NCBI GenBank assembly: GCA_013823245.1
Contig: PNLU01000003.1
Span: forward strand, 4,427-68,426
DNA from: Alcanivorax sp.
Lineage (GTDB): Bacteria; Pseudomonadota; Gammaproteobacteria; Pseudomonadales; Alcanivoracaceae
Reading direction: 5' to 3'
DNA: 64,000 bases
Part shown: positions 25,340-46,147 of the stretch, piece by piece
How the letters are laid out: every line of letters starts with the position of its first letter
Numbering within the stretch: the first letter of the stretch is position 1
The notes under the pieces: generated by a model
What the model was told of the DNA's origin: nothing
What the model saw: only the letters and a program-made list of their open reading frames with translations
Databases searched by the model: none
Translations under genes and position numbers: made by a program

Positions 25340-25351
25340 CGCTTCTTTTAG

Positions 25352-25648: not shown

Positions 25649-27107
25649 CGACGATCACCTCCATATGCCGGGTCGCCTCGACCTGCGGCTCGACAGCCTC
25701 TTCCTCATCGTCGTCGCTCTGCACCAGGGCCACGAAGATGAAGATCACGATCACCGCCAGCGGCGCAAAGATACGGATCATGGCGCGCCAGACCATATAG
25801 AGGCCGAAGCTCTTCATGGCCAGTTCCTTGCGGGCGTGGGTCTCTTTCATGATCCAGCCGGCGAAGATGGCAATCAGCAGGCCGCCCAGGGGCAGCATGA
25901 TATTGATGGTGAGGAATTCCAGATTGCCGAAGAAGGTGCGCCCGAACAGGGTGACCTCCTGCCAGTGATTGAATGACAACACCGTGCCCAGCCCCAGGAA
26001 CCAGGCGGAGGCACCGATGGTGAGGCTGGCGGTCCAGCGCTTCCAGCCGTTCTCGACCATCCACGCCACCAGCGGCTCGCCCAGTGAGATCGACGAGGTC
26101 CAGGCGGCGCACACCAGCAGCACAAAGAACACCGTGCCCAGCAACATGCCGAACGGGATATTGGCGAACGCCAGCGGCAGGGTCACGAACATCAGCCCCG
26201 GCCCTTCATCCGGCGCCAGGCCGTTGGCAAACACAATGGGGAAGATCACCAGACCGGCGACCAGCGCGATCAGCGTATCCAGCCCGGCGATGGTAAATAC
26301 GGTGGAGCCAATGGACACCGACTTGCGCTTGCCGGTGCGCTTGTCAGTGACCTCGCGCGGCATATAGGCCCCGTAGGCCATGATGGCGCCCAGCCCCAGG
26401 CTGAGCGTGAAAAACGCATGACCCAGGGCCAGCAGCACCGCGTTAACCGAGAAGGCCGAGGCATCGAACCGGAACAGGAAGTTCACCGCCGGCATGAAGC
26501 CATCGGTGGTCGCCGAGTAGACCAGCAACACCAGCAGCAGCACAAACAGCAGCGGCATCAGGATACGCACCGCCGCCTCCAGGCCCTTGTTCACGCCGCG
26601 CGCCACCACCAGCATGGTCATGGCCATGAAGGCCGTGTGGCAGCCCAGCATCAACCAGAAGTTACCGCGCAGACCGCTGTAGGTATCCGCCACGGCCTTG
26701 GCGTCGGCACCCTGCAGGGCACCGCTGGCCATTTCCCAGATGTAATACAGCGCCCAGCCCGCAATCACGGTGTACAGCGACAGCAGGAAGAAACCCGCCA
26801 GGGCACCCAGCCCGCCCACCGCACTCCAGCGCTGGCTGACCCCGGCATCGCGGGCCAGCTTGCCCATGGTATGAATCGGACTCAGGCCGCCACGGCGCCC
26901 CAGCATGACCTCGGCAATCATGATCGGCACCCCGACCAGCGCGATACAGACCAGGTAGATCAGCACGAAGGCGCCGCCGCCGTTGTCCCCGGCCATATAG
27001 GGGAATTTCCACAGGTTGCCCAGCCCGACGGCTGACCCGGTGGCGGCCAGGATAAACACCCAGCGGCTGGCCCAGATGCCGTGCACCGGCTTGTAGTCCT
27101 TCGTCAT
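25641..27107 (-). CDS. Sodium-dependent transporter, NSS/SNF (LeuT-like) family
   Basis: [19 protein letters not shown] and FFTLSLG motifs; about 12 TM helices. Confidence 0.93.
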
Positions 27108-27296
27108 GCGCTGTTCCTGCTGTCTGTGTCTGCGACGCCATGTCCGGCGAAAGCGGCCATTTTCCCGACTTTACCCGAACGGCTCAAGCAAACCCCGTGC
27201 CCACCAGACGGCCAGGCGGGTCAATGCCCGCCTTTTGCGGACTTGCAGTGTGCAGAACGCAGCATTTCTGCGGCAATCAGGTATACTGCCGCCCCC

Positions 27297-27773
27297 ATGA
27301 CGACACAGAAAAAAGCCAAGTCGGGCATTGCCAACATTGCGGTCAACCGCAAGGCACGGCACGACTATCATCTTGATGACCGCTTCGAGGCAGGACTGGT
27401 GCTGGAAGGCTGGGAGGTAAAATCCCTGCGTGACGGCCGCTGTAACCTGTCAGAGGCCTATATCACCCTGAAAGACGGGGAAGCCTGGCTGTTCGGCTGC
27501 CGGATAGAGCCGCTGGGCACGGCCAGCACGCACATCAACCCCGACCCCCTGCGCCTGCGCAAGCTGCTGCTGCACCGGCGTGAGCTGGGTCGTGTCTTCA
27601 GCGGCGTACAAAAGGAAGGCTATACCTGCGTGCCGCTCAGCCTGTACTGGAGCAAGGGGCGCGCCAAGCTCGAAATCGCGCTGGCCAAAGGCAAGCAGAA
27701 GTTCGACAAGCGCGCCACCGAGAAGGAGCGCGACTGGAACCGCCAGAAGCAGCGGATCATGCGGCAGCGCTAG
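27297..27773 (+). CDS. smpB: SsrA-binding protein SmpB
   Basis: [32 protein letters not shown] and KGKQKFDKR motifs. Confidence 0.98.
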
Positions 27774-28030
27774 GCGCTGCCGCGATCCAGGCGCTCAAAG
27801 CGACCGCGCAGGTCGTCACGCACTTGCCAGTACACCAGCAACCATGCCCGCAGCACGGCCGGCAGGAAGAAGACCGCAAACAGTACGATCGGCATGCGCG
27901 CGTCGCCCGTTGCAGCGTCCACAGCCAGCAGACCTGCCGCGTAGGCCACCAGTGCCACCATCAGCATCAGGGTGCGCCCCAGCAGCGGCCAGCGGTTCAT
28001 CATGCGTTCTACAGTGTCAAAGGCGTTCAT
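27770..28030 (-). CDS. Small hypothetical membrane protein (86 aa, two TM helices)
   Basis: GGAGG RBS ~7 nt before the ATG, two hydrophobic segments, 4-nt convergent overlap with smpB. Confidence 0.6.
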
Positions 28031-28061
28031 CGTTCAGTCCTCCGTTGAGGATGGGTCCAGC

Positions 28062-28106
28062 TGTTACGTCGGGTACTGTTACGTCTCGTGTTACCCGTCG
28101 TGTTAC
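28062..28106. repeat. Four TGTTAC direct repeats
   Basis: TGTTAC at 28062, 28077, 28089 and 28101; the first two extend to CTGTTACGTC, the last two to TCGTGTTAC. Confidence 0.75.
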
Positions 28107-28284
28107 GAAAGGTATCATCCGACAGTTTTCCGGTTTGTCACCCTTTTTGGGTCGGATTGTCCTACAGCATATCGGGCCAAATTTACATTCGTTGATGGCA
28201 AGGTGACCCAGGTCAAAAAATCCCGCGGCCCGGCACTGGAAATCCCGCGCCATGCCCCCACATTCCTGTACAATGACGCTTACA

Positions 28285-28641
28285 GGGGCCGACAAGGTTT
28301 CGACGCCGGTTATGAATCCTGTGGTGCATGCCGAGAAGGTCACGATTCTCGTAAATCCTTTGTGACAACTTAAAGTAATCGCAAACGACGATACTTACGC
28401 ACTGGCGGCCTAAGGCCTGCCAACGGTCAAGCGACCCAGCCCGTGGGGAAGCGCGACCGGCATAGCTACACGGGATCGCAGCAACGTCCGCCCCGGATTG
28501 CGCTGTTAAAACCTTTAGGGGCTCGGTGGCTGCGTCCTGCCCGTTGGGTTGCAGTCACTCAAATCAGTAAACAGGGCTAAGCATGTAGATCTGCAGGTGG
28601 ATTGCTGACGGACGCGGGTTCGATTCCCGCCGGCTCCACCA
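28285..28641 (+). ncRNA. ssrA: tmRNA
   Basis: 5' GGGGCCGACAAGGTTTCGAC, tag reading frame 28381-28413 (GCA AAC GAC GAT ACT TAC GCA CTG GCG GCC TAA = ANDDTYALAA*), 3' GGTTCGATTCCCGCCGGCTCCACCA; next to smpB. Confidence 0.97.
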
Positions 28642-28647
28642 ATAATG

Positions 28648-28678
28648 AAACCCCAACCGTTCTCGGTTGGGGTTTTTT
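28648..28678 (+). terminator. ssrA intrinsic terminator (probably bidirectional)
   Basis: AAACCCCAACCG-TTCT-CGGTTGGGGTTTTTT. Confidence 0.9.
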
Positions 28679-28814
28679 CTTGCCTGATCGCGCCGGTTCC
28701 CACGTATTCTTGGGGGTTCCTGCGGAAGCGCGCGGACTTCGCCGGTCAGCCTGTTCCTGATGCTCAAGGATCTCAAGGGCAGCGTTGCGGCGAAAGCGTG
28801 GGGTGATTTGCCAT

Positions 28815-30137
28815 TTATGGGTTGTCATGGTGGATAAACATTGCCTGCAGTTGCGCGCAAGCCGGGAGCTTCAGACGACGCGCCTTAAGACAAAACGGCA
28901 GCACCCAAAGACGCAAGCCGCTGGTTTTTGGAAAATCAAACACTGGCAATGGGTTGGCGAAAGCATCGGTTCCGGGGTAAATCAGCACCACATCCCCGGC
29001 ACCGTCGAGATAACTCAATCCATAGGCTTGTAGCTGGTAAAAGTCGCTCTGGGACAAACCGTATTTGTCGGTTCCGTTCGCCTTCAGGCCATCAAGCAGC
29101 TTCCACTTGGTGTCGAGCACCAGTACATTCCGAACTGGATCCCGAATCAGAAAGTCCGGCTTCAAGCGAAACCAATTCTGTTCGCGGTGGCGAACCAGGT
29201 GCTGACTGCGTGCCTGGGTCTTCAGAATGCGGGGCGGAGCCAATTGTCGCGGAAGATGTTTTGCCACATAGGCTTCAAATACCGCCTCCATCGGAAACAG
29301 CAATGATGGGGCGCTGTGGTGACCCGATCCGGTCAGCGGCGATTCCTCATCCAGGATAAGGCGCGCCCATGCCAAGGCATCGGTGTAGTAGCCCATACCG
29401 CGATCCAGCCGCACCTGCTGGAAATCGATCCGCACCTGTGTGGACGTGGGAACATCCGCAAACACGAAACCCAGCTCCCGGGCCAGCTGCTGATTCGCCT
29501 GCGCCCCGGTCAGGAGCAACACGCGCCGTAACGCTGCGTGGAGCAGTCGGTTCTCCGGTCGATCAGTCGAAAACTCATCGTGCTCCGTAAAGAAGCGGTC
29601 GGCCCGGAAAAGGTTCTGCCGCAAGTGTGACGACATCAGCAGCTTGCCACGCAAGACCAATAAGTTGTCCTGCCGCTGGCGATAGTCACTCCGCAGCCCA
29701 CGCTTGACGATTTGCTCCACAGCGCGCAGAAACTCGCTGACGAAGATTTCCAGCAACGGCATCCTCGTTGCAGAAAGTTTAGCGCTGTCGGTCTGCACAT
29801 GCCGAAAGCCCTGCAGGCAGCACAACATGTCAATCAACAACTGACGCGCCTCGACCGCGCCGCCACCGATGGCCTTGCCGACCTTCGGCAGAACCTCTAT
29901 CTGGTATCCGTCCGGCGCACGAATGACGCCAACGAAGCTCGTCACCTGAATAACACGACGGCCACGGCGTTGGGTCCAGCGCAGCCAGGCGGCCTCCCCC
30001 GCGTCTGCAGCGCGCAGGCATTGCTCCTCAAGCCAGCCAAATACGCTGGCCGGAACCCGGTGGACGCCATCGATACCCGAAAAATCCGCCCCAACTGCTG
30101 CCAGGGCGTCAAACTCGTAAATCGTCAAACCATTCAT
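28815..30137 (-). CDS. mcrC: McrC-family PD-(D/E)XK nuclease subunit
   Basis: LFPMEAVFEAYV, LKPDFL, VLDTKWK and DFYQLQAY motifs; coupled to the McrB stop codon. Confidence 0.88.
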   Translation of the reverse strand: MNGLTIYEFDALAAVGADFSGIDGVHRVPASVFGWLEEQCLRAADAGEAAWLRWTQRRGRRVIQVTSFVGVIRAPDGYQIEVLPKVGKAIGGGAVEARQLLIDMLCCLQGFRHVQTDSAKLSATRMPLLEIFVSEFLRAVEQIVKRGLRSDYRQRQDNLLVLRGKLLMSSHLRQNLFRADRFFTEHDEFSTDRPENRLLHAALRRVLLLTGAQANQQLARELGFVFADVPTSTQVRIDFQQVRLDRGMGYYTDALAWARLILDEESPLTGSGHHSAPSLLFPMEAVFEAYVAKHLPRQLAPPRILKTQARSQHLVRHREQNWFRLKPDFLIRDPVRNVLVLDTKWKLLDGLKANGTDKYGLSQSDFYQLQAYGLSYLDGAGDVVLIYPGTDAFANPLPVFDFPKTSGLRLWVLPFCLKARRLKLPACAQLQAMFIHHDNP

Positions 30138-32518
30138 CAGGCTGGCGGTGTCTGGTAGATGCCGATATAGGCATCTGGATTGGTGAACGCCGCCTCCTGA
30201 ACCACGTAACGCTGCCGCGTGGTATAAGTGTCAAGGCCGTGATCACTGCCGAACAGGCGCGCCAGATCCTCTTCATAATCCTGGCTCTCAATCACAAACC
30301 GGGCCGCCTCAGGCTTCTGATTGTCGGCCAGAACCAGCCGTATTTTTTGCCAGTCCTCGAAGAAGTATTCCTCGAGCAAGGGGACGATGCGCTGACTGAA
30401 GACCTGCGACAAGGCCACCAGCCGCTCGTCTCCGTCCGGCACTTGTGCAAGCGATGTGAAGTAAGCGTGGCCGATACAGTGGTCGCGATCATAAAGGGCC
30501 TCAACGCGCTGATTGATGGCAGACAACATGCGTGGAATGTCGATTACCTGCTCACCCAAACTCACCCGCAGATCAAACAGTGGCGCACCTGCTTCATTTC
30601 GAACATCCGGCAGCACAGGCACGAAGTCGAACCGGCGACGCAGCGCCGTATCCAGCAGCGCCAGCGACCTGTCCGCCGTGTTCATGGTGCCGATGATGTC
30701 TACATTGGCGGGCACCGAGAAGGATTCGCCCGAGTAGGGCAAGGTGACCGAGATAGCATTTTCCGCACCCTCGCGCTTGTCCGGCTCGATCAAGGTGATC
30801 AGTTCACCGAAGATCTTGCTGATGTTGCCCCGGTTGATTTCGTCGATAACCATAGCAAAGCGCTGATCCGGGGTGAGGCGTGCCTTACGGCATAACTCCT
30901 TGAAGGCACCGGCGCGTATCTCGTACTTGATCGCGCCAGATTCAGTGTCGCCCTCCAGCACCGGACGCAGGCCCTCCACGAACTCCTCATAGCCATACGA
31001 TTGATGGAAGGTGACAAAGCTGTAGTGCCGAAGAATTTCCGAAGACTGAGCACCAGCTCGATACTCCTCAAGCAAGACAACGAGGTCGACGCATGCTTCC
31101 TCCCATTCTCCGGCGAGCTGCCAGACAGAGTCTTCACTCTTGTCAAAAACTTGTGGGCTAAGGCGGCGGCTGGTTCTTACCGTCGTTGATTCATCGATCG
31201 TATGCGCTTGCAATGTGCCCCAGATGGTTTGCCGCTGATTTTTCTCTCGTCCCTTTGTGACTGAAACTACCTTGATGAAGGGGTGCTCCAGTAGCTGGCT
31301 CACATTGGCCTTGCCACCAAGGTCGACCAATGCCAGGAGGGCAGCCTCCCACCATTTCAGCGGCGCAATTCTGTCAGCGATAAACTGGCTTTGCCATTGC
31401 GCCGCAGACACCGATGTCGTTGCCTGCTCATAGTCACGCCGCAGCAACTTGGAAACCTCGTACGTCTTGCCGGTCCCGGGCGGTCCGTAGTAAATGCGAT
31501 TGAAGGCTTGCGTGACAGCGGCATCCATCGGTGGCTCCTCGTCATCGGATTCCTCGTCAGATTCCTCCGGATCATCCCGCAGCTGGTCAGGCCACAGACC
31601 AGGGCGTTCGGTTTCCAACACCAACCACTCGTCCAGGGTTTCGCGCTCGGCCACCAAGGCAGCTTCGATTTTCGCCACCAGATCGTCGGTCAGTGGCTCT
31701 CGGTTCAACTTGGGCACCGTGCCGACATCACGTGTCCAGGATATCTTTCGGGTGCGGGTGCCACGGATCACACCGAGCACGCCGATCGCACGCTCACTGC
31801 CAGGGTTCTTGCGGCCAAAGCGCACCTGAATCCCTTTGCCCATGTGCCACCAATCCAGCCCTGCCGCGTGAACGGCTCTGGCCAGCCGGCAAAACGTAGC
31901 CTTGTCCTGCGCCGACCAAGAAGCCCGGAAGGTTTTGAAGGCGGGCTTGCCATCGAAGTGTTTGAGCAGATCCTCATCACTCAGCTTTTCGCCCAAATCC
32001 AGCTTGGCCACCACTTCGTCGTAGCGAATGCGGAACTGGCGAATGGCCTCGATGCTCCAATCCACCAGCTCAGCCAGCGATTTGCCCAGTCCTTCCGAGG
32101 CTGGAAGCATAGCGACGATAGGTGACCCGTTGTCGTAGCCGCCGCGCAGTGCAAGGTAGCCACGACGCGCGGGTGCACCCTCATCAAGCCCGACCGTGTC
32201 AATCTTGACCACAAAACCGTCGCCGGCCCCAATACCAACCGTATAAGCCAGCTCCTTCGGTGAATCCTTTGCGGGGTAGATGCGCGCCCAGTTATACGGC
32301 AGAAAGGAATTCGCCTGGCTGGTCGGGCGCTTGCGAACCTTGACCACACCCGTCGGGAACAACTTGGTCTTCACCTCGTTGGCCCACGACTCGGTCACCT
32401 CGTAGGCCTTCTTCAGTTCCTCATAGGCGCGGTTCTGCTCGGGGTTGGATTCGTCGCGCTTTTGCCCCTTCCACTTATTCAGCAGTTTGAAGTGGTCACT
32501 GGTGAAGTAGTCCGCCAT
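30137..32518 (-). CDS. mcrB: McrB-family AAA+ GTPase with extended N-terminal domains
   Basis: GPPGTGKT, FVTFHQSYGYEEFVEG, IDEINRGN, McrB signature MNTADRS, ALRRRF and IGHAYF. Confidence 0.88.
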   Translation of the reverse strand: MADYFTSDHFKLLNKWKGQKRDESNPEQNRAYEELKKAYEVTESWANEVKTKLFPTGVVKVRKRPTSQANSFLPYNWARIYPAKDSPKELAYTVGIGAGDGFVVKIDTVGLDEGAPARRGYLALRGGYDNGSPIVAMLPASEGLGKSLAELVDWSIEAIRQFRIRYDEVVAKLDLGEKLSDEDLLKHFDGKPAFKTFRASWSAQDKATFCRLARAVHAAGLDWWHMGKGIQVRFGRKNPGSERAIGVLGVIRGTRTRKISWTRDVGTVPKLNREPLTDDLVAKIEAALVAERETLDEWLVLETERPGLWPDQLRDDPEESDEESDDEEPPMDAAVTQAFNRIYYGPPGTGKTYEVSKLLRRDYEQATTSVSAAQWQSQFIADRIAPLKWWEAALLALVDLGGKANVSQLLEHPFIKVVSVTKGREKNQRQTIWGTLQAHTIDESTTVRTSRRLSPQVFDKSEDSVWQLAGEWEEACVDLVVLLEEYRAGAQSSEILRHYSFVTFHQSYGYEEFVEGLRPVLEGDTESGAIKYEIRAGAFKELCRKARLTPDQRFAMVIDEINRGNISKIFGELITLIEPDKREGAENAISVTLPYSGESFSVPANVDIIGTMNTADRSLALLDTALRRRFDFVPVLPDVRNEAGAPLFDLRVSLGEQVIDIPRMLSAINQRVEALYDRDHCIGHAYFTSLAQVPDGDERLVALSQVFSQRIVPLLEEYFFEDWQKIRLVLADNQKPEAARFVIESQDYEEDLARLFGSDHGLDTYTTRQRYVVQEAAFTNPDAYIGIYQTPPA

Positions 32519-32524
32519 GTTCTC

Positions 32525-33277
32525 TTATATCCCCTCAACATCCATTCCGTGTTCCGCCAGCCAGGCCCTGCGCTGGGCATAGTCGGGCATGGCGCGCTCG
32601 ACGCGTAGCCAGAAGGCAGGGGTGTGGTGCGGCTCGTGCAGATGGGCAATCTCGTGCACCACCACATATTCCGCTATACCCGCCGGCAGCAAGATCGTTT
32701 TCCAGTGGAAGTACAGCCAGTCACCCTTGCCGCAAGAACCCCAGCGATAGCCGAGGTCCTGCACCTTCACGCCAGCCGGTGCTACCTCCATGCGTGACTG
32801 GTAGTCGGCTACCCGGCCCGACAGCCAGACCCGAGCCCGCTCGCTATACCAGCGAATGAAATGCTCCCGTGCGCCTGCCTTCGCATCGTGGCGCAGCGCA
32901 AAGCGGCCACTCACCAGCTTCAAGGGTGCGCCTTGGTCATCGACCAATTTCAGCCGATGGCTGCGCCCCAGATACAGGAAACCCTCGCCATCAACGAACT
33001 CTTTGCGCGGCACCTGCCGTTGTAGCCGATCCTTCTCGGCCAGCTTGGTGTAGATCCAGAAGCGCTTCTCGCTGACAAACTCACGGAGTTGGTCGATGCC
33101 CACATCGGGCGGCGCGCTCACAATCAGCTCCCCCGTTCTTTCCACCGTGATTTGCATCGTCCGGCGCCGAGCACTGCGACGTAGCGTAAACTGCAAGTCG
33201 TCCACGTGGATGCAAGCCTCTGCTTCGGCGGCAGGACTGTTGCCGTGTGGATGGGCCGGTTTCAGCGAAGTCTGCAT
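32525..33277 (-). CDS. M48/SprT-like (YgjP/DUF45) zinc metallopeptidase family protein
   Basis: RWGSC, YVVVHEIAHLHEPHHTPAFW (HExxH); typical partner downstream of hsdR. Confidence 0.88.
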   Translation of the reverse strand: MQTSLKPAHPHGNSPAAEAEACIHVDDLQFTLRRSARRRTMQITVERTGELIVSAPPDVGIDQLREFVSEKRFWIYTKLAEKDRLQRQVPRKEFVDGEGFLYLGRSHRLKLVDDQGAPLKLVSGRFALRHDAKAGAREHFIRWYSERARVWLSGRVADYQSRMEVAPAGVKVQDLGYRWGSCGKGDWLYFHWKTILLPAGIAEYVVVHEIAHLHEPHHTPAFWLRVERAMPDYAQRRAWLAEHGMDVEGI

Positions 33278-33280
33278 GCG

Positions 33281-36200
33281 TTACACCTGCACCAGCTTGT
33301 CGTGGTTGGCGCGCGCCTGTTCCATCAGCCTGTCTGCCAGCACACCCGCCATGTCGGTATCCACCAGGGGTGGCCGCAGGCGCATCAGATGCTCGAACAA
33401 TTGCGTGTTCAAGTCTTCCTGAGCGGCGCGTTTATGGGGGCTCCAGATATCACGGTTGCCTTGCAGCTCTTGCACCAGAAGATCCACCAGTTCCACGGTT
33501 ACATCTTTCAGGCGCAACAGCTGGGTGGCGCTGGGTGTCTGGCCTACGCACACCACATCCAGCAGCGTGCGCAAAAACGGCGCGCAGTGCTCGGGCAGGT
33601 CGCTTGGCGCATCGTCACTCCCGGCCTTGCCGGTGCGCAGCTCGTCGATGATTTTCTGCAGCTGCGAGATTACCTCGCTCCACTGCTCGCCGAGCGTTTT
33701 CAGAATGTCGTTCAAACGCTCCGAAAGTTTGCGGTACAGCACCGGGTCTTCATCGACGTGCTTGCGGATGTGTGAGCGAATCGCGTGTTCCATCTCCGAA
33801 GCCACTGCGCGACTGGCTTCCGCACCGGCGTCATCGGCGGTCTTTCGCAGATGCTTTTCAAAGGCCACATCGGTGAGCTGAATCGGTGGGATCTTAGGAT
33901 CGATGCCCAGCGAGATCACATGGTCGTCAATCAGCTTGCGCACTTTGGCGCCGACATCCTTGCCCAGTACCGGCGTGTCCTTGTAGCGGTTACGGGCGCG
34001 GGCGTAGATATAAGCAAGCTTCTTGGCGTCCTTGGTGTAGGGCAAGCCCTCTGGTCGTGGCAGCACCGTATCCAGTGACCCGAGGAAGGCCTTGAGCTTG
34101 ACGGCAAACTCGGCGCGCAGCTTCTCGCTGCGCAGCGCCTCGATGCAGGCTTCGCTGTCCTCCAGCGATTCAATACCGCGCTGGCGGAACAGATCCACCA
34201 GGCGCAGATGGCGGTCGCGCAGTATCGGCACCTCGTCCTTCAGGCTGGCCAGCGCGCCTGCTACGTCTTCATCGGCGTAGGCCGCCAGCGCCTCCTTCAA
34301 ATGCTGCGCCACGCCGTAGTAGTCCACCACGATGCCGCAGCGCTTGCCGAAGCCGGTGCGGTTGACGCGAGCAATCGCCTGCAGCAATTCCGCCTCGCGG
34401 ATCGGTCGGTCAAGGTACATCACGCCCTCGATCGGCGCATCAAAGCCGGTGAGCAACATCGATTTCACCACCAGGAAGGCCAGCGGGTCGGTCTTCTCGG
34501 GCCTGGCATTGAACAAGGGCTTTTTGAAGCGCTTGATCAGCTGGTCGTGCGCCGTGCCATCGGTCCACGGCTTCCAAGCCGGGTCGTCGTTGTTGCTGCC
34601 CGAAATGATGGGCGCGAATTCAATGCGCGCCAGGGTGTCGCGGTAGCGCCAGGCCTGCACCACCGCCTGGATGCTCACCGAGCGCTGACACAGCGCCTCG
34701 TCATCCAGCGCCTTGTCCCCGGGAGAAAGCGCGTGGGCCTCGGCCAACAGCTCATCGCGGGCTGACCGCAGGGCCTCGAAATATCGAATCGCCGCCAACC
34801 GGCTGTACGCCACCACCTGTGCCTTGTAACCGTTGGGCAGGATGTTGGTCACGTAGTGGCGCAAGATGTCGCGCGCCTTGTCGGCGATCAGCGCCGGGGC
34901 GTCAAAGATGTGGCCCTTGGTGGCGTACTTCTTCTTAATGGCCTCCAGCTCTTCGGGGCTGTGCTGACGGAACAGGTCCTCAAACAGCTCGTCCAGGCTG
35001 GCGCCGTCCTTGATAGCGCCGCTGGCTGTGCGGCCCTCGTAGAGCACCGGCACCGTGGCACCGTCGGCCTCAGCTTCCTTGATGGTGTACTTGTCGATGA
35101 ACTCGCCAAAGATCTCGTGGGTGCGCTTTTTGTCGCCCATGATGATCGGCGTGCCGGTAAAGCCGATGCGTGCGCAGTTGGGCAGGCCCGCCAACAGGTT
35201 GGCATGCAGGTCGCCCGCCTGGGTGCGGTGCGCCTCGTCCACCAGCACGAGGATGCTATCGTCCTCGTTCAGCACCTCGAACTTTTCGTCGGGTTTGTAG
35301 GGGGCCTTCGGTTCTTTTACGCTGGGTTCGGGCACCTTCGGCAGATCGTCTGCGGTCAGCGGCGCATCACCGACGCTGTCCGGGTCGCGGTATTTTTGAA
35401 TGGTGGCAAAGATCAGCCCCGGGCCCTTACGCCGCGCCAGCGCCTTCACGCCGTGGGTGCTCTCGGCCACATCCACCACCTCGCCGGTCAGCGTGGCGGT
35501 CACCGACAACTGGCCCTGCAGGTCCTTGCGGTCGGTGACGACGATAACCTTGAAGCGCCGCAGTTGCGCGTCCGCGCGCATCTTGCGCACCAGGAACACC
35601 ATGGTCAGCGATTTGCCCGAGCCCTGGGTGTGCCAGATGATGCCGCCGCGCTGGTCGTGTTCGCCGTGCTGCAGCCGCGTCGGACCGGTCTTGAGGCACG
35701 CAATCGCCCGATTCACTGCCCGGTACTGCTGGTAGCGGCACACCGTCTTGACGGTCTGGCCGCCGGTCTGCATGAACAACATGAAGTTTTTCACCACATC
35801 CAGCAAATGCGCGGGGGCCAGCAGCCCGGCGATCAGACGTTCCTGCTCGGAGAGGGCTGGCTTGCCGAGTGCCTGCGCCACCTCGATCTCACTGCCCGTC
35901 CCATCCGGGCCGACCACCGTTTTCCACTGCGCGTAGTGCTCAAAAGCTGCGCCCACGCAGCCTACCCGCGCCTCGTCGAAGCTGGTGGCCACCAATAGCT
36001 GGTTGGTGGCGAACAAAGACTCGTTGCCCTCGTTGTCATCAACCTCGAAGGCGGCCTTGCGCTGGTTGCTGTAGCGCCGCAGTTGGTCCACCGCCTCGGC
36101 CAGCGGCTCGGGGACGGACGGGCTCTTGCACTCCACCACCACCAGCGGGATGCCGTTCACCAGCAGTACCAGATCGGGCACGATGAATTGCTTGGCGCTG

Positions 36201-36631
36201 TTGAAGCCGGGCGGGCAATCCACGCGGTACTGGTTGATCACCGTAAAGCGGTTGTTGGCCGGGGTGTCCCAGTCGATGTAGCGGAGGGTCTGGCCGCGCC
36301 CACCGTCCCAGCCGGGCAGGCCCTCCACCGTCAGGCCACAGATCAACAACGAGGTCGCCTTTTCGTTGGCCTCCATCAACTTGTGAGTGCCCAGCCGGGT
36401 GATGGCGGATACCGCCTCCGACAGCCGCGCCTCGTCCAGCCAGGGCGCACCGTCAGGCCCCAGGTTCAGCGCGCGCAGTTGATCGCGTAGCACCCCCTCC
36501 TGAATAACGTCGGTAAAACTGGCTCGACCCGTGACTGATGGGGCATCAAGACTGCCCGCGTTATAGCCCCAACCGAGTGCCTGCAACTGGGTTACGAAGG
36601 GTTTTTCAACGTCATCAAGTTCCCAGCCCAT
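33281..36631 (-). CDS. hsdR: Type I restriction enzyme R subunit (~1116 aa)
   Basis: PDLVLLVNGIPLVVVECK nuclease, HTQGSGKS, DEAH, FTGTP, MLLTGFDAP and QAIARVNR. ATG at 36631 overlaps the hsdS TGA. Confidence 0.95.
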   Translation of the reverse strand: MGWELDDVEKPFVTQLQALGWGYNAGSLDAPSVTGRASFTDVIQEGVLRDQLRALNLGPDGAPWLDEARLSEAVSAITRLGTHKLMEANEKATSLLICGLTVEGLPGWDGGRGQTLRYIDWDTPANNRFTVINQYRVDCPPGFNSAKQFIVPDLVLLVNGIPLVVVECKSPSVPEPLAEAVDQLRRYSNQRKAAFEVDDNEGNESLFATNQLLVATSFDEARVGCVGAAFEHYAQWKTVVGPDGTGSEIEVAQALGKPALSEQERLIAGLLAPAHLLDVVKNFMLFMQTGGQTVKTVCRYQQYRAVNRAIACLKTGPTRLQHGEHDQRGGIIWHTQGSGKSLTMVFLVRKMRADAQLRRFKVIVVTDRKDLQGQLSVTATLTGEVVDVAESTHGVKALARRKGPGLIFATIQKYRDPDSVGDAPLTADDLPKVPEPSVKEPKAPYKPDEKFEVLNEDDSILVLVDEAHRTQAGDLHANLLAGLPNCARIGFTGTPIIMGDKKRTHEIFGEFIDKYTIKEAEADGATVPVLYEGRTASGAIKDGASLDELFEDLFRQHSPEELEAIKKKYATKGHIFDAPALIADKARDILRHYVTNILPNGYKAQVVAYSRLAAIRYFEALRSARDELLAEAHALSPGDKALDDEALCQRSVSIQAVVQAWRYRDTLARIEFAPIISGSNNDDPAWKPWTDGTAHDQLIKRFKKPLFNARPEKTDPLAFLVVKSMLLTGFDAPIEGVMYLDRPIREAELLQAIARVNRTGFGKRCGIVVDYYGVAQHLKEALAAYADEDVAGALASLKDEVPILRDRHLRLVDLFRQRGIESLEDSEACIEALRSEKLRAEFAVKLKAFLGSLDTVLPRPEGLPYTKDAKKLAYIYARARNRYKDTPVLGKDVGAKVRKLIDDHVISLGIDPKIPPIQLTDVAFEKHLRKTADDAGAEASRAVASEMEHAIRSHIRKHVDEDPVLYRKLSERLNDILKTLGEQWSEVISQLQKIIDELRTGKAGSDDAPSDLPEHCAPFLRTLLDVVCVGQTPSATQLLRLKDVTVELVDLLVQELQGNRDIWSPHKRAAQEDLNTQLFEHLMRLRPPLVDTDMAGVLADRLMEQARANHDKLVQV

Positions 36632-37840
36632 CAGGCGCTCCTCTTTTGTTGTACTGCTTCGGCAAGCAATGCCGTGACGCGGACGCGGCCGGTGAGGAGA
36701 TCGTCCATGAGGCCCGTCTTCTCTGCCCAAAGCTTCTCGATGCTTTGTTCCTCCAGACGAAGGCGGGTTTCAATTGCATCCACACGCTCCATGAGCAACC
36801 GTTGCTCTTCAAGCACCGGGACCGCTAAGCGTAGGTTTCGAACATCACGAAGTGTGACTTTCGGTCGCGTCACCCCCGCCGTGATTTGCTCTACTTGTTT
36901 GGCGACTGATGGAGCATTGATAAAGACCGACATCCATCCGGGAAGGATTCGGCCCAGGTTAGGCCGCAATCGGACAATGTCTGCAGTCACTACACCATTC
37001 GGCATCGAAGCTGGATAGACGGCGGCAACACAGGGTGGAAGCCCCATTTTTGTAGCCACGACGTCGCCTGGTACTACCTCGTGTGCAGCGAGCGCCTGTG
37101 CCTTTCTGCCGCTCACATAGACGTTGCTCTTCCAGATCAGACAGCCCGGCTTTACGTCCCGAACGAACACGACCGGAACACCCGTTGCTCGATAATCAGA
37201 CGCCACGAGATCGCTTCCAAACGGCCCGATTACGGAGCTCGTCGTGAGATTTGAGACGAAATCGACTTTCCACTCTTTCGGGATCCACCCCAGCGGCGAC
37301 TGCTTGTAGAGATGCGGCGCCTCGGCCTGGGGCGGGCGCAGTTCGCCGTTGGCGTCGATGCCGCACGTCAGCAGGTCGTGCAGCAGGCCCTGCTTGACGG
37401 CCTTGAGCTTGGCGATGATCGCCTCGGTTTGGTGGATGGCGGTGTCGAGGGTGTCGAGGATTTGGGCGATCTGCTGCCGCTCAATCAGCCGAGGACGGTC
37501 AACAGTTAGTGCATAGGCGTCGTTTCGATTCAGGCCAGGAACACCCGTTGAGCTATCAAGTCGCGTCAACGGCAACCATTTCAAAATCCAATAGATCCAC
37601 CGTCTATCCTCGGGGGCACAGTTTACCCAATACGTCGTATCAATTGGCCAGAACGGCTCGTCTGACCACGTGACTTTCCCGACACTGCCCTTGCGCCCTA
37701 CGATGATGCCGGGCTCCGGGATCAAGTACTTGTGGTGTCTTCCAACTTCGCCATTCGATCCAAAAACAGGAAAGCCGTGACCGGAGCGCGCCTCAGCAGG
37801 CATTGCTTCGCCATACTCAAGGATCAGTATCGAACCCAAC

Positions 37841-37848
<8 letters not shown>
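36631..37848 (-). CDS. hsdS: Type I R-M specificity subunit
   Basis: Two TRDs, each followed by a conserved helix (EQ..I..ILD.LD..I...E....[13 protein letters not shown]; [15 protein letters not shown]), joined by [13 protein letters not shown]. Confidence 0.93.
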
Positions 37849-40366
<2,518 letters not shown>

Positions 40367-40424
40367 GTCAAAAGTCCAGTCAAAGTCGGTTTTTCTGTTT
40401 TGTTCGTTCGCTGGGCGCGCTGCA

Positions 40425-41339
40425 TCAGTTGGCCTTGCCCAGAATGTTTTGTGAGCCTGGCGAGCGGTAGCCCGGCGCCAGCACGGCATTTTTTACACCG
40501 TACAACACCAGATGATCTTTCAACCATAACCGGTATTCGTAGCCACGCAGGCTGTGGTCAGGGGAGCAGTCGACGCTCCATTTGCGCAGGATGTATCCAG
40601 CCGTAGCCGCGCGCAGCTTCATCCGCAGCACGCCACCTTGCATGCTGTAGTCCATCTCAGTGATCTCTGGTCGGGGTTGATCCGGGTGCGGCACCAGCTC
40701 CAGCTCGACGATGCGGGTCCATTGGATGTCCTGATCGCTCCTCTCGCAGGGCGCCACTGGCTGCCCCTTGAGCACCACAGGCTTCTTGATCCGGGTGATG
40801 ACGAAATCCCTGAACCCCTGGGTTTTGCGATCAAACGCACGGACGTGCCAGCGCAACCCGGTGTCGATCAACGCAAACGGGACGATCTCACGCTCAGTCT
40901 CGCCACTCGACAAGGAGTGGTAGGCGACTTTCAGCGGGCGCTCCTGGTGGATGGCCCGCGTGACGCATGCGAGAGTGTCGAGACCTGGTTTTGTGAGCCT
41001 GGAAGGGACCTCACAGGTAATCCAGGACTTGAGGGCGGAAGGCTCACCGTCACCGAAGCCCTGTGACAGCCACGCCAAGACCCGCTCTGCCGGGAAGTCA
41101 AAGACGGGCGCAAAACCGTCTGCGCACCCGTACACCTTGTTCTTAGTGTCGTAGTCCAGATTGCCTGGGGCGAGATCCTTGTAGATCCCGATATCCCGGG
41201 TTGCCGCCGCCACCTGTATGCCGAAACGCGACACCAGATCTTGACGACGAATCTCTCCGATGAAGCGCAGGCGCAACTCGATGAACGCAAGCCGGTCGCG
41301 CTGGGGCTGGGTCAGGTCTGCAAGCTGTTCGTTGGACAT
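40425..41339 (-). CDS. wHTH-WYL-WCX transcriptional regulator (BrxR/CapW-like)
   Basis: N-terminal wHTH ([20 protein letters not shown]...AATRDI..Y) and WYL core (YHSLSSG...R.IVPFAL...RWHVRAFD...FRDFVITRI); first gene of the defence operon. Confidence 0.88.
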
Positions 41340-41511
41340 CCTGGCTGCCGCTTCGGGTTAATGATCGCCAGTTCATACTTTAATGATCAGTATATTCCTC
41401 ACACTATAATCTGTCGATAAATTGACGCTGCGTAGGAGTCCATCGCATTTTATTACTTACATAGGGCCACAATGAGCGGGGGCCGATGGGAAAGCAGGCC
41501 TTTGCCAAAAT

Positions 41512-41567
41512 TGGGTGTAAATGGGCGTCTTAGTGGATGCACCTCGAAAATGGGTGTAAATGGGCGT
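41512..41567 (+). repeat. Perfect 17-bp direct repeat upstream of fic
   Basis: TGGGTGTAAATGGGCGT at 41512-41528 and 41551-41567; the second copy ends 11 bp before the ATG. Confidence 0.85.
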
Positions 41568-41578
41568 AGTATTGGTTC

Positions 41579-42628
41579 ATGCTGAAAACTGACACCATCC
41601 AGATCACCCCGGAGATGCTGAGCCTCATCGCCAGGATCGACGAGTTCAAGGGCGCCTGGCGCGCCTTGGGCACGCTCGCGCCCGACCGGCTGTTGGCCCT
41701 GCGCCGCGTAGCCACCATCGAGAGCATCGGCTCATCGACCCGCATCGAGGGCAGCAAGCTGTCCGACCGGGAAGTGGAGCAGTTGCTGTCGAACCTGGAG
41801 ATCAAGTCTTTTGCTACCCGCGACGAGCAGGAAGTGGCTGGCTACGCCGAGCTGATGGATCTGGCCTTCACGTCCTGGCAGGACATCCCGTTCACAGAGA
41901 ACCACATCAAACAGTTGCACCAGGTCCTGCTGCGCTATAGCGAGAAGGACACCTGGCATCGCGGCAGCTACAAGACCAACTCGAACAGCGTCGCCGCCTT
42001 CGACGAGACCGGCGCGCAGATCGGCATCGTGTTCCAGACAGCGTCGCCCTTCGACACGCCCCGCCTGATGAGGGAGCTGGTGGCCTGGGTGAACCAGGAG
42101 CGCGAGACGGCTCGTCTGCACCCGCTGCTGATCATCGCCCTGTGCGTCGTCGTGTTCCTGGAGATCCATCCGTTCCAGGACGGCAACGGGCGGCTCTCCC
42201 GCGTGCTGACCACGCTCCTGCTTCTGCAGGCCGGTTACGCCTATGTGCCGTACAGCTCGCTGGAAAGCGTGGTCGAGCAAAGCAAGGAGGCGTACTACCT
42301 GGCTTTGCGGCAGACACAGGGCACGATCCGCTCTGATGCACCGAACTGGCAGCCGTGGCTGATGTTCTTCCTGCGCTCTCTGGCCGAGCAGGTACGACGC
42401 CTGGAGAAAAAAGTCGAGCGCGAGAAGATCGTGCTGGCAGCCATGCCGGAACTACAGCTACAGATCGTCGAGTTCGCCCGCGAGCACGGCCGCGTCACCA
42501 TCGGCGAGGCTATCAAACTGACCGGGGCCAGCCGCAACACGCTGAAGCAGCACTTCCGGACACTGGTCGAGCGCGGCACGCTTGCTCAGCACGGCGGTGG
42601 CCGTGGGGTTTGGTACGATCTACGCTGA
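41579..42628 (+). CDS. Fic-domain protein (class II autoinhibited) with C-terminal HTH
   Basis: [12 protein letters not shown] catalytic motif, N-terminal STRIEG inhibitory motif (S/T-xxx-E-G/N), C-terminal wHTH ([30 protein letters not shown]). Confidence 0.92.
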
Positions 42629-42684
42629 GAACTGCGGGACGCGGGTTCGATTCGCGTTCTGTGACCTATCACCGGAGAACCGCC

Positions 42685-43668
42685 ATGCCCCACCCTGCCC
42701 GCCTTTCCATTCTCGACCTGGTCCGCGTCACCGAAGACGGCAGCGTGCGCCAGGCGCTGGACAATGCCCGGGATCTGGCGGCTCATGCGGAGCAATGGGG
42801 CTACCAGCGTTTCTGGGTGGCCGAGCATCACAATATGGAGAGTATCGCCAGCGCGGCGACGTCGCTGGTGATCAGTCATGTGGCGGCGGGTACGCGGCAT
42901 ATTCGTGTCGGTGCGGGCGGCATCATGTTGCCCAACCATTCGCCGCTAGTGATCGCGGAGCAATTCGGCACCCTGGCGCATCTGTATCCGGGCCGTATTG
43001 ATCTTGGTCTGGGGCGGGCGCCGGGGACGGACCAGAACACGCTGCATGCGTTGCGGCGCACGCCGGCGGCATCGGATCGTTTTCCGGAGGACGTGCGCGC
43101 CTTGCAGGCGTTGCTGGCGCCCGCCCAGCCGGGGCAGGCTATTCAGGCGATCCCGGGGGTGGGCACGCAGGTGCCGCTGTGGATTCTCGGCTCCAGCACC
43201 TTTGGTGCGGCGTTGGCGGCGGAGTTCGGTTTGCCCTATGCCTTCGCGTCGCATTTTGCGCCGCAGCAGCTGATGGAGGCGCTGGCGCTGTATCGCCAGC
43301 GCTTCAAGCCTTCCGCGCAGTTGTCCGAGCCTTACGCCATGGTCGGCGTGAATGTGGTGGCGGCCGATTCGGAGCGGGAGGCGAAGCGTCTGGCCACGAC
43401 GCAGCAAATGTCGTTTGCCAATCTGTTACGCGGTGACCGACGCCTGAGCCAGCCGCCGATTGATGACATTGATACCTACTGGTCGCCGCGCGAGAAGATG
43501 CAGGCCAGCCAGATGCTGGCGCGTTCGATCATCGGCACACCGGAAATAGTGCATGCGGGGCTGGAGGCATTGCAGGCGGAAACCGGGGCCGATGAACTGA
43601 TCATCGTCTCGGACATTTATGATCATGCGTCGCGCTTGCGCTCTTTCGAGTTGATCGCCTCACGCTGA
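42685..43668 (+). CDS. LLM-class flavin-dependent oxidoreductase (luciferase-like)
   Basis: [39 protein letters not shown] and PYAFASHF motifs; GGAG RBS. Confidence 0.92.
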
Positions 43669-45068
43669 AGGCGGCCGCTGCGCTTCATGTCGCCCCACTT
43701 GGCCTGTTTGCCGCGCAGCCACTGCAGGGTGCCGCGCACGCGCCACCAGGTGTTGAGCTGCCGGTAACCCAGATTCTCGGCCAGGGCGGCGCCGAACAGG
43801 CGCAGGATGGAGCGCTTGCCGGGGTAGATGCGGAACGACAGCTCTTCCAGCAACAACGCAAACACCGACATGAGAATACCAAGGCCAATAGCCACCAGCA
43901 GAAAGGCGATAATCCATGCCGGGCTGAGGGCACCGGTAAGCGCCATGGTGATCACGAACAGATAACCGCCCAGTTCCAGCAGCGGCCCGATGGCCTCGAA
44001 GATCAGCATGAACGGAAAGGCAAGCCAGCCCACCGTGCCGCCACGGGGATGGCAGCACAGTTTGCTGTTGGCGGACAGGCTTTCCAGCAGGCCCCGCTGC
44101 CAGCGGATACGCTGCGAGCGCAGGGTGGCCAGGTCCTCCGGCGCCTCGGTCCAGCACACCGGGTCCGGCAGAAAATGGATGCGGTAACGGCGCCGGTTCA
44201 GGCGCATGTGCCGATGCAAACGCACCACTAGTTCCATGTCTTCGCCGATGGACTTGTGGCGGTAGCCGCCGACTTCCACCACCACGCTTTTACGAAACAC
44301 GCCGAAGGCGCCGCTGATGATCAGCAGGGCATTCAGGGGTTCCCAGCCCAGGCGACCGAACATGAAGGCGCGCAGGTATTCGATAATCTGCATCAGCGGC
44401 AACCAGCGCTTCGGCAGGCGTGCCTGAAGCAGGTTACCAGCATCCACGTCGCTGCCGTTGGCAATACGCACCGTGCCGCCGGCGGCGATGGTGTCGGGGT
44501 CGTCCACGAACATGCGGATAATGCGCAGCAGGCTGTCGCGCTGGATGATGGAGTCGGCATCCACGCCGCAGAACAGCGGGTAGCGGCTGTAGTTGATGCC
44601 GGCATTCAGGGCATCAGCCTTGCCGCCGTTTTCCTTGTCGATGACTCGCAGTAACGGCTGACTGCGTGAGCGATACACACCGCGCACGCGGGCGGTGGGC
44701 AAACGCTCGTCGGCGGTTTCCGGCACCTGATACAGATCAAACGCCTGCTGCAATACGGCCAGGGTGTTGTCGCGCGAGCCGTCGTTGATCACCACTACTT
44801 CGTGTTCGGGATACGCCAGTTGCAGCATGGCCTGCACCGAGGAAGTAATGTTCGCTTCTTCGTTGTACGCAGGCACCAGCACGGAAATCGGTGGCAGGAA
44901 GGCATGGTAGGGGCGCGGCAGGTACTCCGCGCGGGCGGCACGGGTGTGCTTGCCGATGGCGAGCAGGGCCATCAGATTGAGCATCAGGTAGCCCAGCGCC
45001 AGGGCGATGAAATAGCACAGGAAGAACCACTGCGCCCAGATGATCAGGTCGTCAATCCACGGCATCAA
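43623..45068 (-). CDS. Processive GT2 glycosyltransferase (PgaC/IcaA/NodC/chitin-synthase-like)
   Basis: N-terminal [31 protein letters not shown](E), QRIRW and two C-terminal TM helices. Confidence 0.92.
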
Positions 45069-46147
45069 TCGGGCTCCGACAGAACATGGGCCAGAATCTC
45101 GCGCACCTGGGGTTGATCATGGGCCGTGGCCAGGGTTTCCAGGTCCCGGCGCTCGGCCCCGGGCAGCGCCAGTAATGCCTGGGCGGCGCGATAACGCACC
45201 CACCAGACCGGATCACTGAGCCGTGCCGCCAGCAGGGTGCGATCGCGGGCATCGCCCAGCCGGCCCAGTGATTGCACGGCCTGAACCCGCACGATCCATT
45301 CCGGGTCCGCCACCGCCGCGCGCAGGGTGCCCAGCCATTGCGGGCCGTCGGCACAGGCACATACCGCGCTACGCAGTTCGGTATCTTCAGGAAAGCGTTC
45401 GTTGGCCTGGCGCAGCAGGTCGTCCACCTGGCCCGGTTGCAGGCTGTCGGCGATGCGGATCAGTTTGCGCAGCGCTGCGGCGTCCAGGGGCTGCGCCAGT
45501 GCTTTCAACTGCCGCGCCAGCTCGGGCGCCGGCACTTCCTTGAGCAGGGCACTGACCCGGCTTTCCGACCAGTCGGGCCGATTCAGGCGACTGAAAATTT
45601 CCGGCAAACCGCGCTGGGCATCAATCGCCACCAGTGCCCGGGCGGCTGTCAGGCTGGTGACGCTGTCGCGGTGATCGAGATACGTCAGCACATCGGGCCA
45701 GGCATCATGAATGCGCAGGTTGCCCAGGCAGGTCAGGGCATCCAGGCGGCGATCCGCGCTGCCGCGCCGCAGCCAGCGGCGCAGGTGCGGGACCAGATTG
45801 AGCTGGCGGGCGAGATCGTGCAGTGGGTCGAGGGACACGCCACGCACGGTGTCTTGCAGGGCGTTGCATAGCCCCACCAGCAATGGCAAGTCACGTCGTG
45901 CCACGGATGGCAGCGACGGCGGGCGCTGCCCGGGAGTCGCCGTCAACAGGCCAAACAGGCGCGGTGTCCAGTCACGGCGCAGGGCGGCAGCCCGCTCATC
46001 CAGGCGCACGTGCCGCCAGTGCAGCCAGACGGTCCCCAGCAACATCAGCACCGTGCCGCCCAGCAAACCTGCTGCGGCCAGCAGCACAGCCAGCAAGGCC
46101 GGGTCAGAACCGATAGCGAAGCCCCAGCCGCCATCCGGTGCGTTCAT
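45065..46147 (-). CDS. Membrane-anchored HEAT/ARM-repeat protein
   Basis: One N-terminal TM helix, then helical repeats (RRLDALTCLGNL, VRVQAVQSLGRLG, LSDPVWWVRYRAAQALL); GGGAG RBS inside the upstream gene. Confidence 0.8.
   Translation of the reverse strand: MNAPDGGWGFAIGSDPALLAVLLAAAGLLGGTVLMLLGTVWLHWRHVRLDERAAALRRDWTPRLFGLLTATPGQRPPSLPSVARRDLPLLVGLCNALQDTVRGVSLDPLHDLARQLNLVPHLRRWLRRGSADRRLDALTCLGNLRIHDAWPDVLTYLDHRDSVTSLTAARALVAIDAQRGLPEIFSRLNRPDWSESRVSALLKEVPAPELARQLKALAQPLDAAALRKLIRIADSLQPGQVDDLLRQANERFPEDTELRSAVCACADGPQWLGTLRAAVADPEWIVRVQAVQSLGRLGDARDRTLLAARLSDPVWWVRYRAAQALLALPGAERRDLETLATAHDQPQVREILAHVLSEPD

Follow-up and report, generated by a model that had tools for sequence, protein, structure and literature searches.

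How does a set of defence genes come to lie behind a transfer-messenger RNA (tmRNA) gene, between two copies of a part of that gene, where no integrase accompanies it? This question is raised by a 64,000-nucleotide stretch of DNA from Alcanivorax sp. (contig PNLU01000003.1 of assembly GCA_013823245.1; hereafter the window), in which an island of about 14 kb separates the tmRNA gene ssrA from a gene for a luciferase-like monooxygenase (LLM). A first, sequence-only reading had taken the island for a repeat-bounded unit in ssrA, either a fixed remnant or a cassette mobilised in trans. We find that it consists of three modules joined end to end, with sharp joints at 28750/28751 and 41507/41508: a non-coding flank behind ssrA, a defence operon and a fic gene module. 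The interpretation that we favour, with a probability of roughly 0.6, is that the ssrA–LLM interval is a tmRNA-linked defence hotspot holding the decayed, composite remains of integrase-less elements that targeted ssrA.

The repeat that frames the island was examined at both ends. The 17-mer GGACGCGGGTTCGATTC occurs exactly at 28610–28626 and 42637–42653, on the plus strand and hence in direct orientation, and the two copies agree at 19 of 20 positions when extended to 20 nt. No further match with up to two mismatches was found in the window, and 100 shuffles gave none (chance expectation, 0). The 3.19-Mb assembly contains just two exact copies; the runner-up, a tRNA-Gly(TCC) T-arm, departs from them at one position. 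The left copy forms the T-arm of ssrA (28285–28641, plus strand), which is intact, encodes the tag ANDDTYALAA (ARAGORN) and matches Rfam RF00023 over its full length (model positions 1–374, 196 bits). The right copy starts 9 nt past the stop codon of fic (TGA, 42626–42628) and comprises only 17–20 nt of a T-arm, that is, the 5′ side and the T-loop but nothing 3′ of the T-loop. From there it continues into GCGTTCTGTGACC, the ssrA 3′ end CCGCCGGCTCCACCA is absent and the sequence past the T-loop is unrelated. Together with its own 3′ flank, the right copy folds at −17.2 kcal/mol with five G–U pairs. The bases immediately 5′ of it are ACTGCG, where the local ssrA has TGCTGAC instead. A search for degenerate ssrA 3′ fragments between 28700 and 43000 recovered the 17-mer alone, and none by the joint at 41508. 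The sequence-only reading was accurate on all of these points that it had addressed, namely the repeat coordinates, the 19/20 extension, the position of the right copy after the fic stop and its lack of the acceptor-stem 3′ end, as well as on a spacing of ~135 bp between the ssrA terminator and the mcrC stop.

Two other sources of the repeat were considered and rejected. The T-arm of tRNA-Gly(TCC) matches at 16 of 17 positions as against 17 of 17 for ssrA, and a Thiobacillus locus with the same element (L086) runs on into an ssrA-type acceptor end. A genome-wide family of repetitive extragenic palindromic (REP) type was dismissed as well, T-arm-like copies in this genome and five relatives being confined to tRNAs, ssrA and arrays downstream of ssrA.

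The right copy is an ssrA-like core fragment borne by the fic module and not a duplicate of the local ssrA. The module occupies 41508–42658 on the plus strand (~1.15 kb, from 41508 to 42653/8) and comprises operator-like repeats, the fic coding sequence (41579–42628), an 8-nt spacer and, as its last 17–25 nt, the T-arm-like att fragment. The protein is of the SoFic type, with a PADLOC match (PDLC03963, 1e-50) over residues 17–343, a Fic motif domain (PF02661) and a C-terminal winged-helix region after the Fic core. In a search restricted to one genome per species, 80 fic loci with 80–96% amino-acid identity were recovered from Beta- and Gammaproteobacteria, Desulfobacterota, Bacteroidota, Acidobacteriota and Verrucomicrobiota, and the gene tree is incongruent with taxonomy. 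Homology at the DNA level extends to more than 40 distant loci; it starts at 41507–41551 and ends at 42626–42658, with T-arm-bearing copies spanning 41508 to 42653/8. Identity is 88–91% to the copies of Thermomonas (L084, 91.3%), Thiobacillus (L086, 91.2%), Steroidobacteraceae (L083, 90.8%) and Chromatiales, as against 82.4% to a congener, G004. A match to the 17-mer with at most three mismatches starts 7–10 nt past the fic stop at 14 of the 80 loci, all of them in one half of the fic tree, and five further loci have looser matches. In L084, L086 and Chromatiales locus L089, fic is followed by ACTGCGGGACGCGGGTTCGATTC, the same sequence as in the window with ACTGCG included, and a sequence similar to ACTGCG occurs in ssrA genes elsewhere in the Gammaproteobacteria (GGACTTGCGGACGCGGG in L083 and L097). 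Because both the ACTGCG neighbour and the fic gene match distant copies and not the local ssrA, the right copy was not duplicated locally; the direct repeat exists because the fic module brings its fragment along and this fragment matches the conserved T-arm of ssrA. In L084, L086 and L089, ordinary chromosomal genes come next after fic and the T-arm, so this combination marks an island edge, as it does in the window. The claim of a repeat-bounded island therefore stands in one respect, the T-arm copy being an att-type relic at the right-hand end of a family of ssrA-targeting elements, and fails in another, the copy not stemming from the local ssrA.

The left end of the island is formed by a 109-bp flank module (28642–28750, plus strand), a putative P-prime arm. 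It is 94% identical to copies at G005:C56:70971–71085 and G018:C7:92987–93079 and 86% identical to a copy in G003. By contrast, the window ssrA is 97% identical to that of G006 and G004 but only 80–84% identical to those of G005 (84%), G018 (80%) and G003. Because the non-coding flank is better conserved than the RNA gene beside it, the flank module is mobile. The G005, G018 and G003 copies lie downstream of the real ssrA and are headed by no more than CCACCA, CTCCACCA or a 25-nt ssrA 3′ fragment. It also follows ssrA in Steroidobacteraceae L083 and Chromatiaceae L097, and tRNA-Phe in Extensimonas L124. The conserved tail ends at GGTCAGC in the window, G005 and L097, and beyond this point each genome differs. 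From 28642 on, the window is unlike the ssrA terminator common to G006, G004 and G002 and is thus foreign to its clade. The module holds its own terminator hairpin (28648–28675), flanked by an A-run and a T-run; as judged from this layout, it could act in both directions and end ssrA as well as the convergent mcrBC operon, whose mcrC stop (28815) lies ~137 bp away. The left end therefore has the anatomy of an ssrA island, with insertion in the 3′ part of the gene and element-borne sequence keeping the gene at full length. In phage and plasmid collections, matches were limited to the ssrA 3′ end, which is contained in the attP sites of many phages; the 109-bp flank had none.

The two end modules are connected in other genomes. 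When the right end of the island (up to 42653) was joined in silico to the sequence from 28627 onward, the product aligned without a break to Thiobacillus L086 over 136 nt at ~90% identity. The order in L086, fic 3′ end, T-arm, ssrA acceptor end and ATAATGAAAC terminator, is the complete version of the distal repeat. The joined sequence also aligns to Chromatiales L089 with a 33-nt insert, well into the flank module. Because they are directly joined in two distant genomes, the fic end and the flank module are partner ends of one ssrA-targeting element family, and their joined state is the arrangement expected of an attP or of a tandem-island joint of that family. A minimal form consisting of ssrA, flank module, fic and T-arm is seen in L097, and in L083 the ends enclose 5.4 kb of cargo. 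In the stretch behind the L083 fic gene, Rfam gave nothing but terminator-like matches below threshold. At the tRNA-Phe-linked loci L124 and L152, the element after fic fits the T-loop and 3′ stem of tRNA-Phe (GTTCGATTCCGCG).

Recombinases were sought on several scales. Pfam analysis of all eight large open reading frames (ORFs) of the island revealed no recombinase domain. A six-frame search of the genome for tyrosine recombinases (PF00589) gave five matches, none on the contig of the island, and the corresponding search for serine recombinases (PF00239) gave zero. These results agree with the earlier claim of an ssrA-linked defence island that contains no tyrosine or serine recombinase. The same picture emerged elsewhere: Pfam analysis of the ORFs of L083, L098, L124 and the G005 island yielded no integrase, with a single large serine recombinase in G005, and tblastn with three integrase queries gave no match in the loci holding both ends. 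Near the arrays of G005, G018 and G003, the sole PF00589 signal is a truncated gene in G003. Among the fic loci, L090 alone has a P4-like integrase gene, the integrases of L126 and L130 being unrelated. PF00589 was not detected on the contigs tentatively assigned to L083, L097 and L098, and on those tentatively assigned to L124 and L152 its matches lie tens of kilobases from the locus (contig numbering inferred in both cases).

Comparison with relatives, covering five to eight genomes, shows what the interval between ssrA and LLM contains elsewhere. LLM (42685–43668, plus strand; PF00296, 7.4e-46) is the conserved right flank, with orthologues in G006, G004, G002 and G001 (78–89% DNA identity), and three of these four congeners (G006, G004 and G002) have ssrA upstream of it in the same orientation, 1.3–3.5 kb away. 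The window flanks (25000–28642 and 42685–46367) are collinear with a single contig of each of the three at 75–85% identity. In G004, a 1.3-kb gap holds a terminator and an orthologous fic ahead of LLM; in G006, a different Fic of 389 amino acids fills a 1.5-kb gap; and in G002, a 3.5-kb gap holds a DUF4172-type Fic on the opposite strand and small toxin/antitoxin-like genes (named by ORF size and sequence only). The same two genes thus bracket 1.3, 1.5, 3.5 and 14 kb in four species, with Fic variants, small toxin/antitoxin-like genes, restriction–modification and McrBC as content. In keeping with the view of ssrA as a hotspot, the interval is one across the genus, variably filled and with a Fic-type gene in three relatives. 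The empty site that had been predicted, with LLM directly after ssrA, was found in none of G004, G006 and G002, where the gaps start at 1.3 kb; the 12.9-kb cargo and a second T-arm copy are absent from all three.

The comparison with G004 also relocates the boundary. Homology extends to the final base of ssrA and sets in again at 41509, so the present indel is 28642–41508 (12.9 kb) with fic outside it, and not an interval ending at the repeat as had been proposed. After its fic stop, G004 retains only CGATGACGGGCGCG, the start of the same element that is seen in L097 and L102. On the right, the joint to the chromosome lies at 42654–42684: 42654–42664 has no counterpart in relatives, LLM-upstream homology resumes at ~42665, and ~45 bp of the ancestral LLM upstream region, common to G004 and G002, are missing. 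The G+C content is 0.56–0.62 inside the island and 0.63–0.68 in the flanks. The inner joint at 41507/41508 is equally abrupt. The segment 41340–41507 consists of the promoter region of a BrxR-family regulator gene and the first ~36 nt of a divergent ORF, which is broken off there. The start of this ORF (ATGAGCGG..CGATGGGA at 41472) corresponds to a 169-amino-acid ORF that adjoins BrxR in G005; homology to G005 stops at 41491, and the gene start at 41472–41507 (ATGAGCGGGGGCCGATGGGA...) is cut where the fic module begins. Because just ~36 nt remain of this ORF, the right part of the operon island has been deleted.

These findings suggest how the locus may have been built. The end modules could be two attP halves once used by a T-loop-specific tyrosine integrase supplied in trans. 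An element family of this kind would first have integrated at the ssrA T-loop, leaving the flank module to follow the ssrA 3′ end and supply the ssrA terminator; cargo would then have been exchanged or lost through recombination, and deletions would have followed. A canonical right site would consist of the core, CCGCCGGCTCCACCA and the native terminator, and the distal repeat here does not run from the core through CCA. With the ssrA 3′ end missing from the right site, a crossover between the 17-bp copies would strip CCGCCGGCTCCACCA from ssrA and thereby cost the gene, as deduced from the sequence, the 3′ strand of the T-stem, the acceptor strand and the CCA. We therefore infer that the island cannot leave cleanly today and is in effect locked. 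Of the two options offered at the outset, the fixed remnant thus agrees with what is seen, except that the island is not one unit, as its three modules and the ssrA–fic–LLM order of G004 indicate.

Several observations weigh against this reconstruction. No integrase-bearing member of the family was found, and a site-specific origin is read from the anatomy only. With no displaced ssrA 3′ end on the right, the reconstruction has to invoke a further deletion whose start coincides exactly with the core. The commonest element behind fic is a palindrome, neither a canonical attL nor a canonical attR. In the fic tree, the window groups with an Oleiphilaceae copy (Shimodaira–Hasegawa-like approximate likelihood-ratio support, 95), but the approximately unbiased test does not reject a clade of window and G004 (p 0.51), and an old fic gene passed on by vertical descent is thus conceivable in this lineage. 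Some bases in the 3′ third of ssrA, upstream of the T-arm, are outgroup-like, which fits import by homologous recombination better than a crossover in the T-loop. Finally, the assembly consists of 196 contigs and is 92% complete.

The most literal account, a single ~14-kb island that integrated in the local ssrA, with the repeat as attL and attR, lost its integrase later and can still be mobilised in trans, would explain the exact direct repeat at both ends, the post-ssrA sequence foreign to the clade, the lower G+C content inside and the fact that the two ends are partner ends elsewhere. We nevertheless consider it quite unlikely: the bases 5′ of the right copy and the entire fic gene have their counterparts in distant genomes and not in the local ssrA, the interior is interrupted by the joints at 28750 and 41508 and a truncated ORF, G004 has fic without the 12.9 kb, and excision from a right site that lacks the ssrA 3′ end would break ssrA. 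An artefact, in which the metagenome assembler fused two organisms through the conserved fic module, could be suspected from the number of contigs and from a fic module ~90% identical across taxa that may co-occur. It is very improbable, as in each of G006, G004 and G002 both flanks have their counterparts on one contig with order and orientation preserved, assembly paths would not merge at 90% identity and a 17-bp repeat is below the usual k-mers.

Homologous recombination is a serious rival to the scenario of an integrase acting in trans, and one that we rate as unlikely on balance. Here the hotspot content would have been imported from a relative, ssrA serving as the left and fic or LLM as the right region of homology, with no site-specific event in this lineage, and the T-arm fragment would be an inert passenger or merely the 3′ hairpin of the fic mRNA. 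The window ssrA differs from that of G006 at nine positions, of which six fall within 28529–28590, upstream of the T-arm, and at three of these (28573, 28577 and 28590) the window agrees with other genera and outgroups, whereas G006, G004 and G002 share a derived state; the gene may be a mosaic. No mobility genes were found, the element behind fic folds as a hairpin in almost all copies, and for cDHS2, an ssrA-flanked hotspot of Pseudomonas aeruginosa, the same route has been put forward (PMC10250203). However, the clustering of ssrA differences is weak (p ~0.03 before correction for the choice of segment), and the same part of the tmRNA varies in all relatives. Import by recombination also leaves unexplained why the same end modules occur at ssrA and tRNA-Phe across classes and why the repeat fits the local type of target RNA, and the missing ~45 bp upstream of LLM mean that the right joint is no clean homologous exchange.

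There is a further possibility, which we regard as doubtful. The fic module and the 109-bp flank might together form a widespread, integrase-less docking scaffold that rides on helper integrases targeting the T-loops of tmRNA and tRNA genes. The T-arm mimic, with high affinity, would offer a second landing pad downstream of ssrA, and defence cargo would pile up between or behind the ends without further risk to ssrA. If true, such a scaffold would account for the recurrence of the two ends around unrelated defence systems in different bacterial classes, as well as for the T-arm-like palindrome arrays that follow ssrA in G003 and G005, one next to the remnant of an integrase.

The commonest element behind fic is an imperfect palindrome of ~42 bp, in which GGTTCRATTCC and GGGAAYYGAAC are separated by 6–7 nt. 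The palindromes fold at −17 to −34 kcal/mol, and the window keeps the left arm only. An 11-6/7-11 layout of this kind would fit the core site of a tyrosine recombinase. An identity with attC or dif was rejected, as the arms show no RYYYAAC/GTTRRRY, and an IntI-type integrase gave no match in the loci. Palindromes of ~42 bp with tmRNA T-loop arms were also observed at G005:C56:99316–99358, 101558- and 103272- (~10817, 13059 and 14773 in L049) and at G003:C1:389841–389883 (L051). AbiJ, an AraC-type gene and a DUF4172-Fic gene precede them; all lie downstream of ssrA and share its orientation, and the G003 palindrome lies ~300 bp from the truncated tyrosine integrase, which points towards it. An element of ~85 nt (ATTCCGCACCTTTCCGCAG...GGCGCAGGGTTCC(A)CCCCACCACCA) is conserved between the congener G003 (L051, ~10690–10780, reverse strand) and Chromatiaceae L097 (~4040–4130), with a T-arm fragment to one side of it and a terminator to the other in each case.

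The middle module is a minus-strand operon headed by a WYL-domain regulator of the BrxR family (40425–41339). This protein matches a solved BrxR over its full length (PDB 7qfz, E = 5.9e-84, residues 3–292; winged helix-turn-helix, WYL and WCX parts; Pfam WYL) and also matches BrxR 7t8k (5e-21) and CapW, and a promoter-like site is predicted upstream at 41417–41389 on the minus strand. Behind it follow the type I restriction–modification genes hsdM (37841–40489; PADLOC MTase_I, E = 0; Pfam N6_Mtase), hsdS (36631–37848; Specificity_I, 5e-74; Methylase_S) and hsdR (33281–36730; REase_I, 2.5e-112; HSDR_N/SWI2_SNF2), a gene for a YgjP-like metallopeptidase (32525–33277; PF01863, 2.5e-54) and the type IV restriction pair of an McrB-like AAA+ GTPase (30137–32518; PF07728, AAA_5) and McrC (28815–30137; PF10117, 2.4e-104), all on the minus strand. 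The longest-ORF calls give HsdM an overlap of 65 nt and HsdR one of 100 nt with the gene upstream (40425–41339 and 36631–37848, respectively); the true starts are probably internal, and the HsdM profile match begins at residue ~42. Taken together with fic, the gene content suggests a layered anti-phage battery that would combine restriction of unmodified DNA, restriction of modified DNA and a single-gene system of the Fic AMPylase type.

The BrxR end of the operon is 81% identical at the DNA level to G005:C56:96355–97378, where BrxR heads a bacteriophage exclusion (BREX) system. This belongs to an island of ~26 kb (G005:C56:70971–97400) that opens with the same 109-bp flank module and carries AbiEi/AbiEii, a Lit-like peptidase, the large serine recombinase, DUF4917, a complete BREX system with a BrxL-MIT_C fusion, BrxR and AbiJ.

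Upstream of fic, direct repeats of TGGGTGTAAATGGGCGT lie at 41509–41529 and 41549–41569. They are kept in nearly all 80 loci, some of which have an additional inverted copy further upstream, and they are probably an operator through which the winged-helix part of Fic would regulate its own gene. No identical LLM or Fic proteins, sought as a source of strain variants, are on record in other assemblies. DUF4172-Fic, on the strand opposite to ssrA, recurs in ssrA-linked arrays of unrelated genomes (4100–5365 in L036 of G002, 13517–14692 in L049 of G005 and 7429–8706 in L098), and appears to be a second Fic type tied to ssrA-type sites. In another genus of the family, displaced 68-nt ssrA 3′ fragments were seen at G075:C42:73892–73959, G068:C52:73329–73395 and G067:C46:10561–10626, ~2 kb downstream of ssrA in G075 and G068; the crossover point of some elements in that genus appears to lie much further upstream in the gene.

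Taken by itself, this genome offers nothing out of the ordinary: a decayed ssrA island with type I restriction–modification, McrBC and Fic under BrxR control. Its wider interest lies in how such islands are put together. Islands and prophages are said, by Williams in 2002 and in 'Traffic at the tmRNA gene' of 2003, to be put into tRNA and tmRNA genes by tyrosine integrases. The island described here is alike in its insertion at the ssrA 3′ part, in the restoration of the gene by element DNA and in a direct repeat at the far end that reproduces a section of the gene; tandem arrays containing displaced 3′ fragments occur in relatives, and the ssrA 3′ end is present in many attP sites of phages. 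It differs in having no integrase, in a distal repeat without a displaced 3′ end and in a repeat borne by a mobile gene module. Cis-mobilizable elements (CIMEs), such as that related to ICESt1 in Streptococcus thermophilus, have att-like ends but no recombination module and need a helper integrase. The present island shares the att-like ends and the lack of a recombination module, but its right att site is incomplete. A resemblance to pdif modules and integron cassettes is one of architecture only, in that a sharp-ended single-gene module is followed by an imperfect 11-6/7-11 palindrome; the arms are T-loop sequence of tmRNA or tRNA, unlike dif or attC, and no link to Xer or IntI was found.

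The closest described case is cDHS2 of P. aeruginosa, an ssrA-flanked core defence hotspot for which transfer by homologous recombination has been raised (Johnson et al. 2023, PMC10250203). As here, a variable anti-phage set lies directly downstream of the tmRNA gene, between conserved core flanks and often without mobility genes. The genus is another one, the right flank is LLM here and VOC/LysR/RidA there, and in Alcanivorax the end modules can be traced to other bacterial classes, albeit in a comparison of five to eight genomes and not of hundreds. The operon resembles described BrxR-regulated defence islands (Picton et al. 2022, PMC9122601; PDB 7qfz and 7t8k) in that a WYL regulator heads several systems, and differs in holding type I restriction–modification, YgjP and McrBC instead of BREX, the version that congener G005 carries. 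The Fic protein shares its profile match and its domain order, a Fic core with a C-terminal winged helix, with SoFic, a class II Fic AMPylase (PDB 3eqx and 3zcn), but identity to the Shewanella protein is low (E = 3e-10 over 120 residues), and a defence role in this lineage is putative. Defence islands beside ssrA that lack mobility genes are thus known, whereas their construction is not, and this locus offers a concrete anatomy of two short end modules with exchangeable cargo. If the end modules are att halves served by a helper integrase, they would be search handles for defence cargo in many Proteobacteria and would provide a testable model for the rise of integrase-less hotspots. The island as such belongs to known kinds, and the end modules shared across classes may be the only part that is new.

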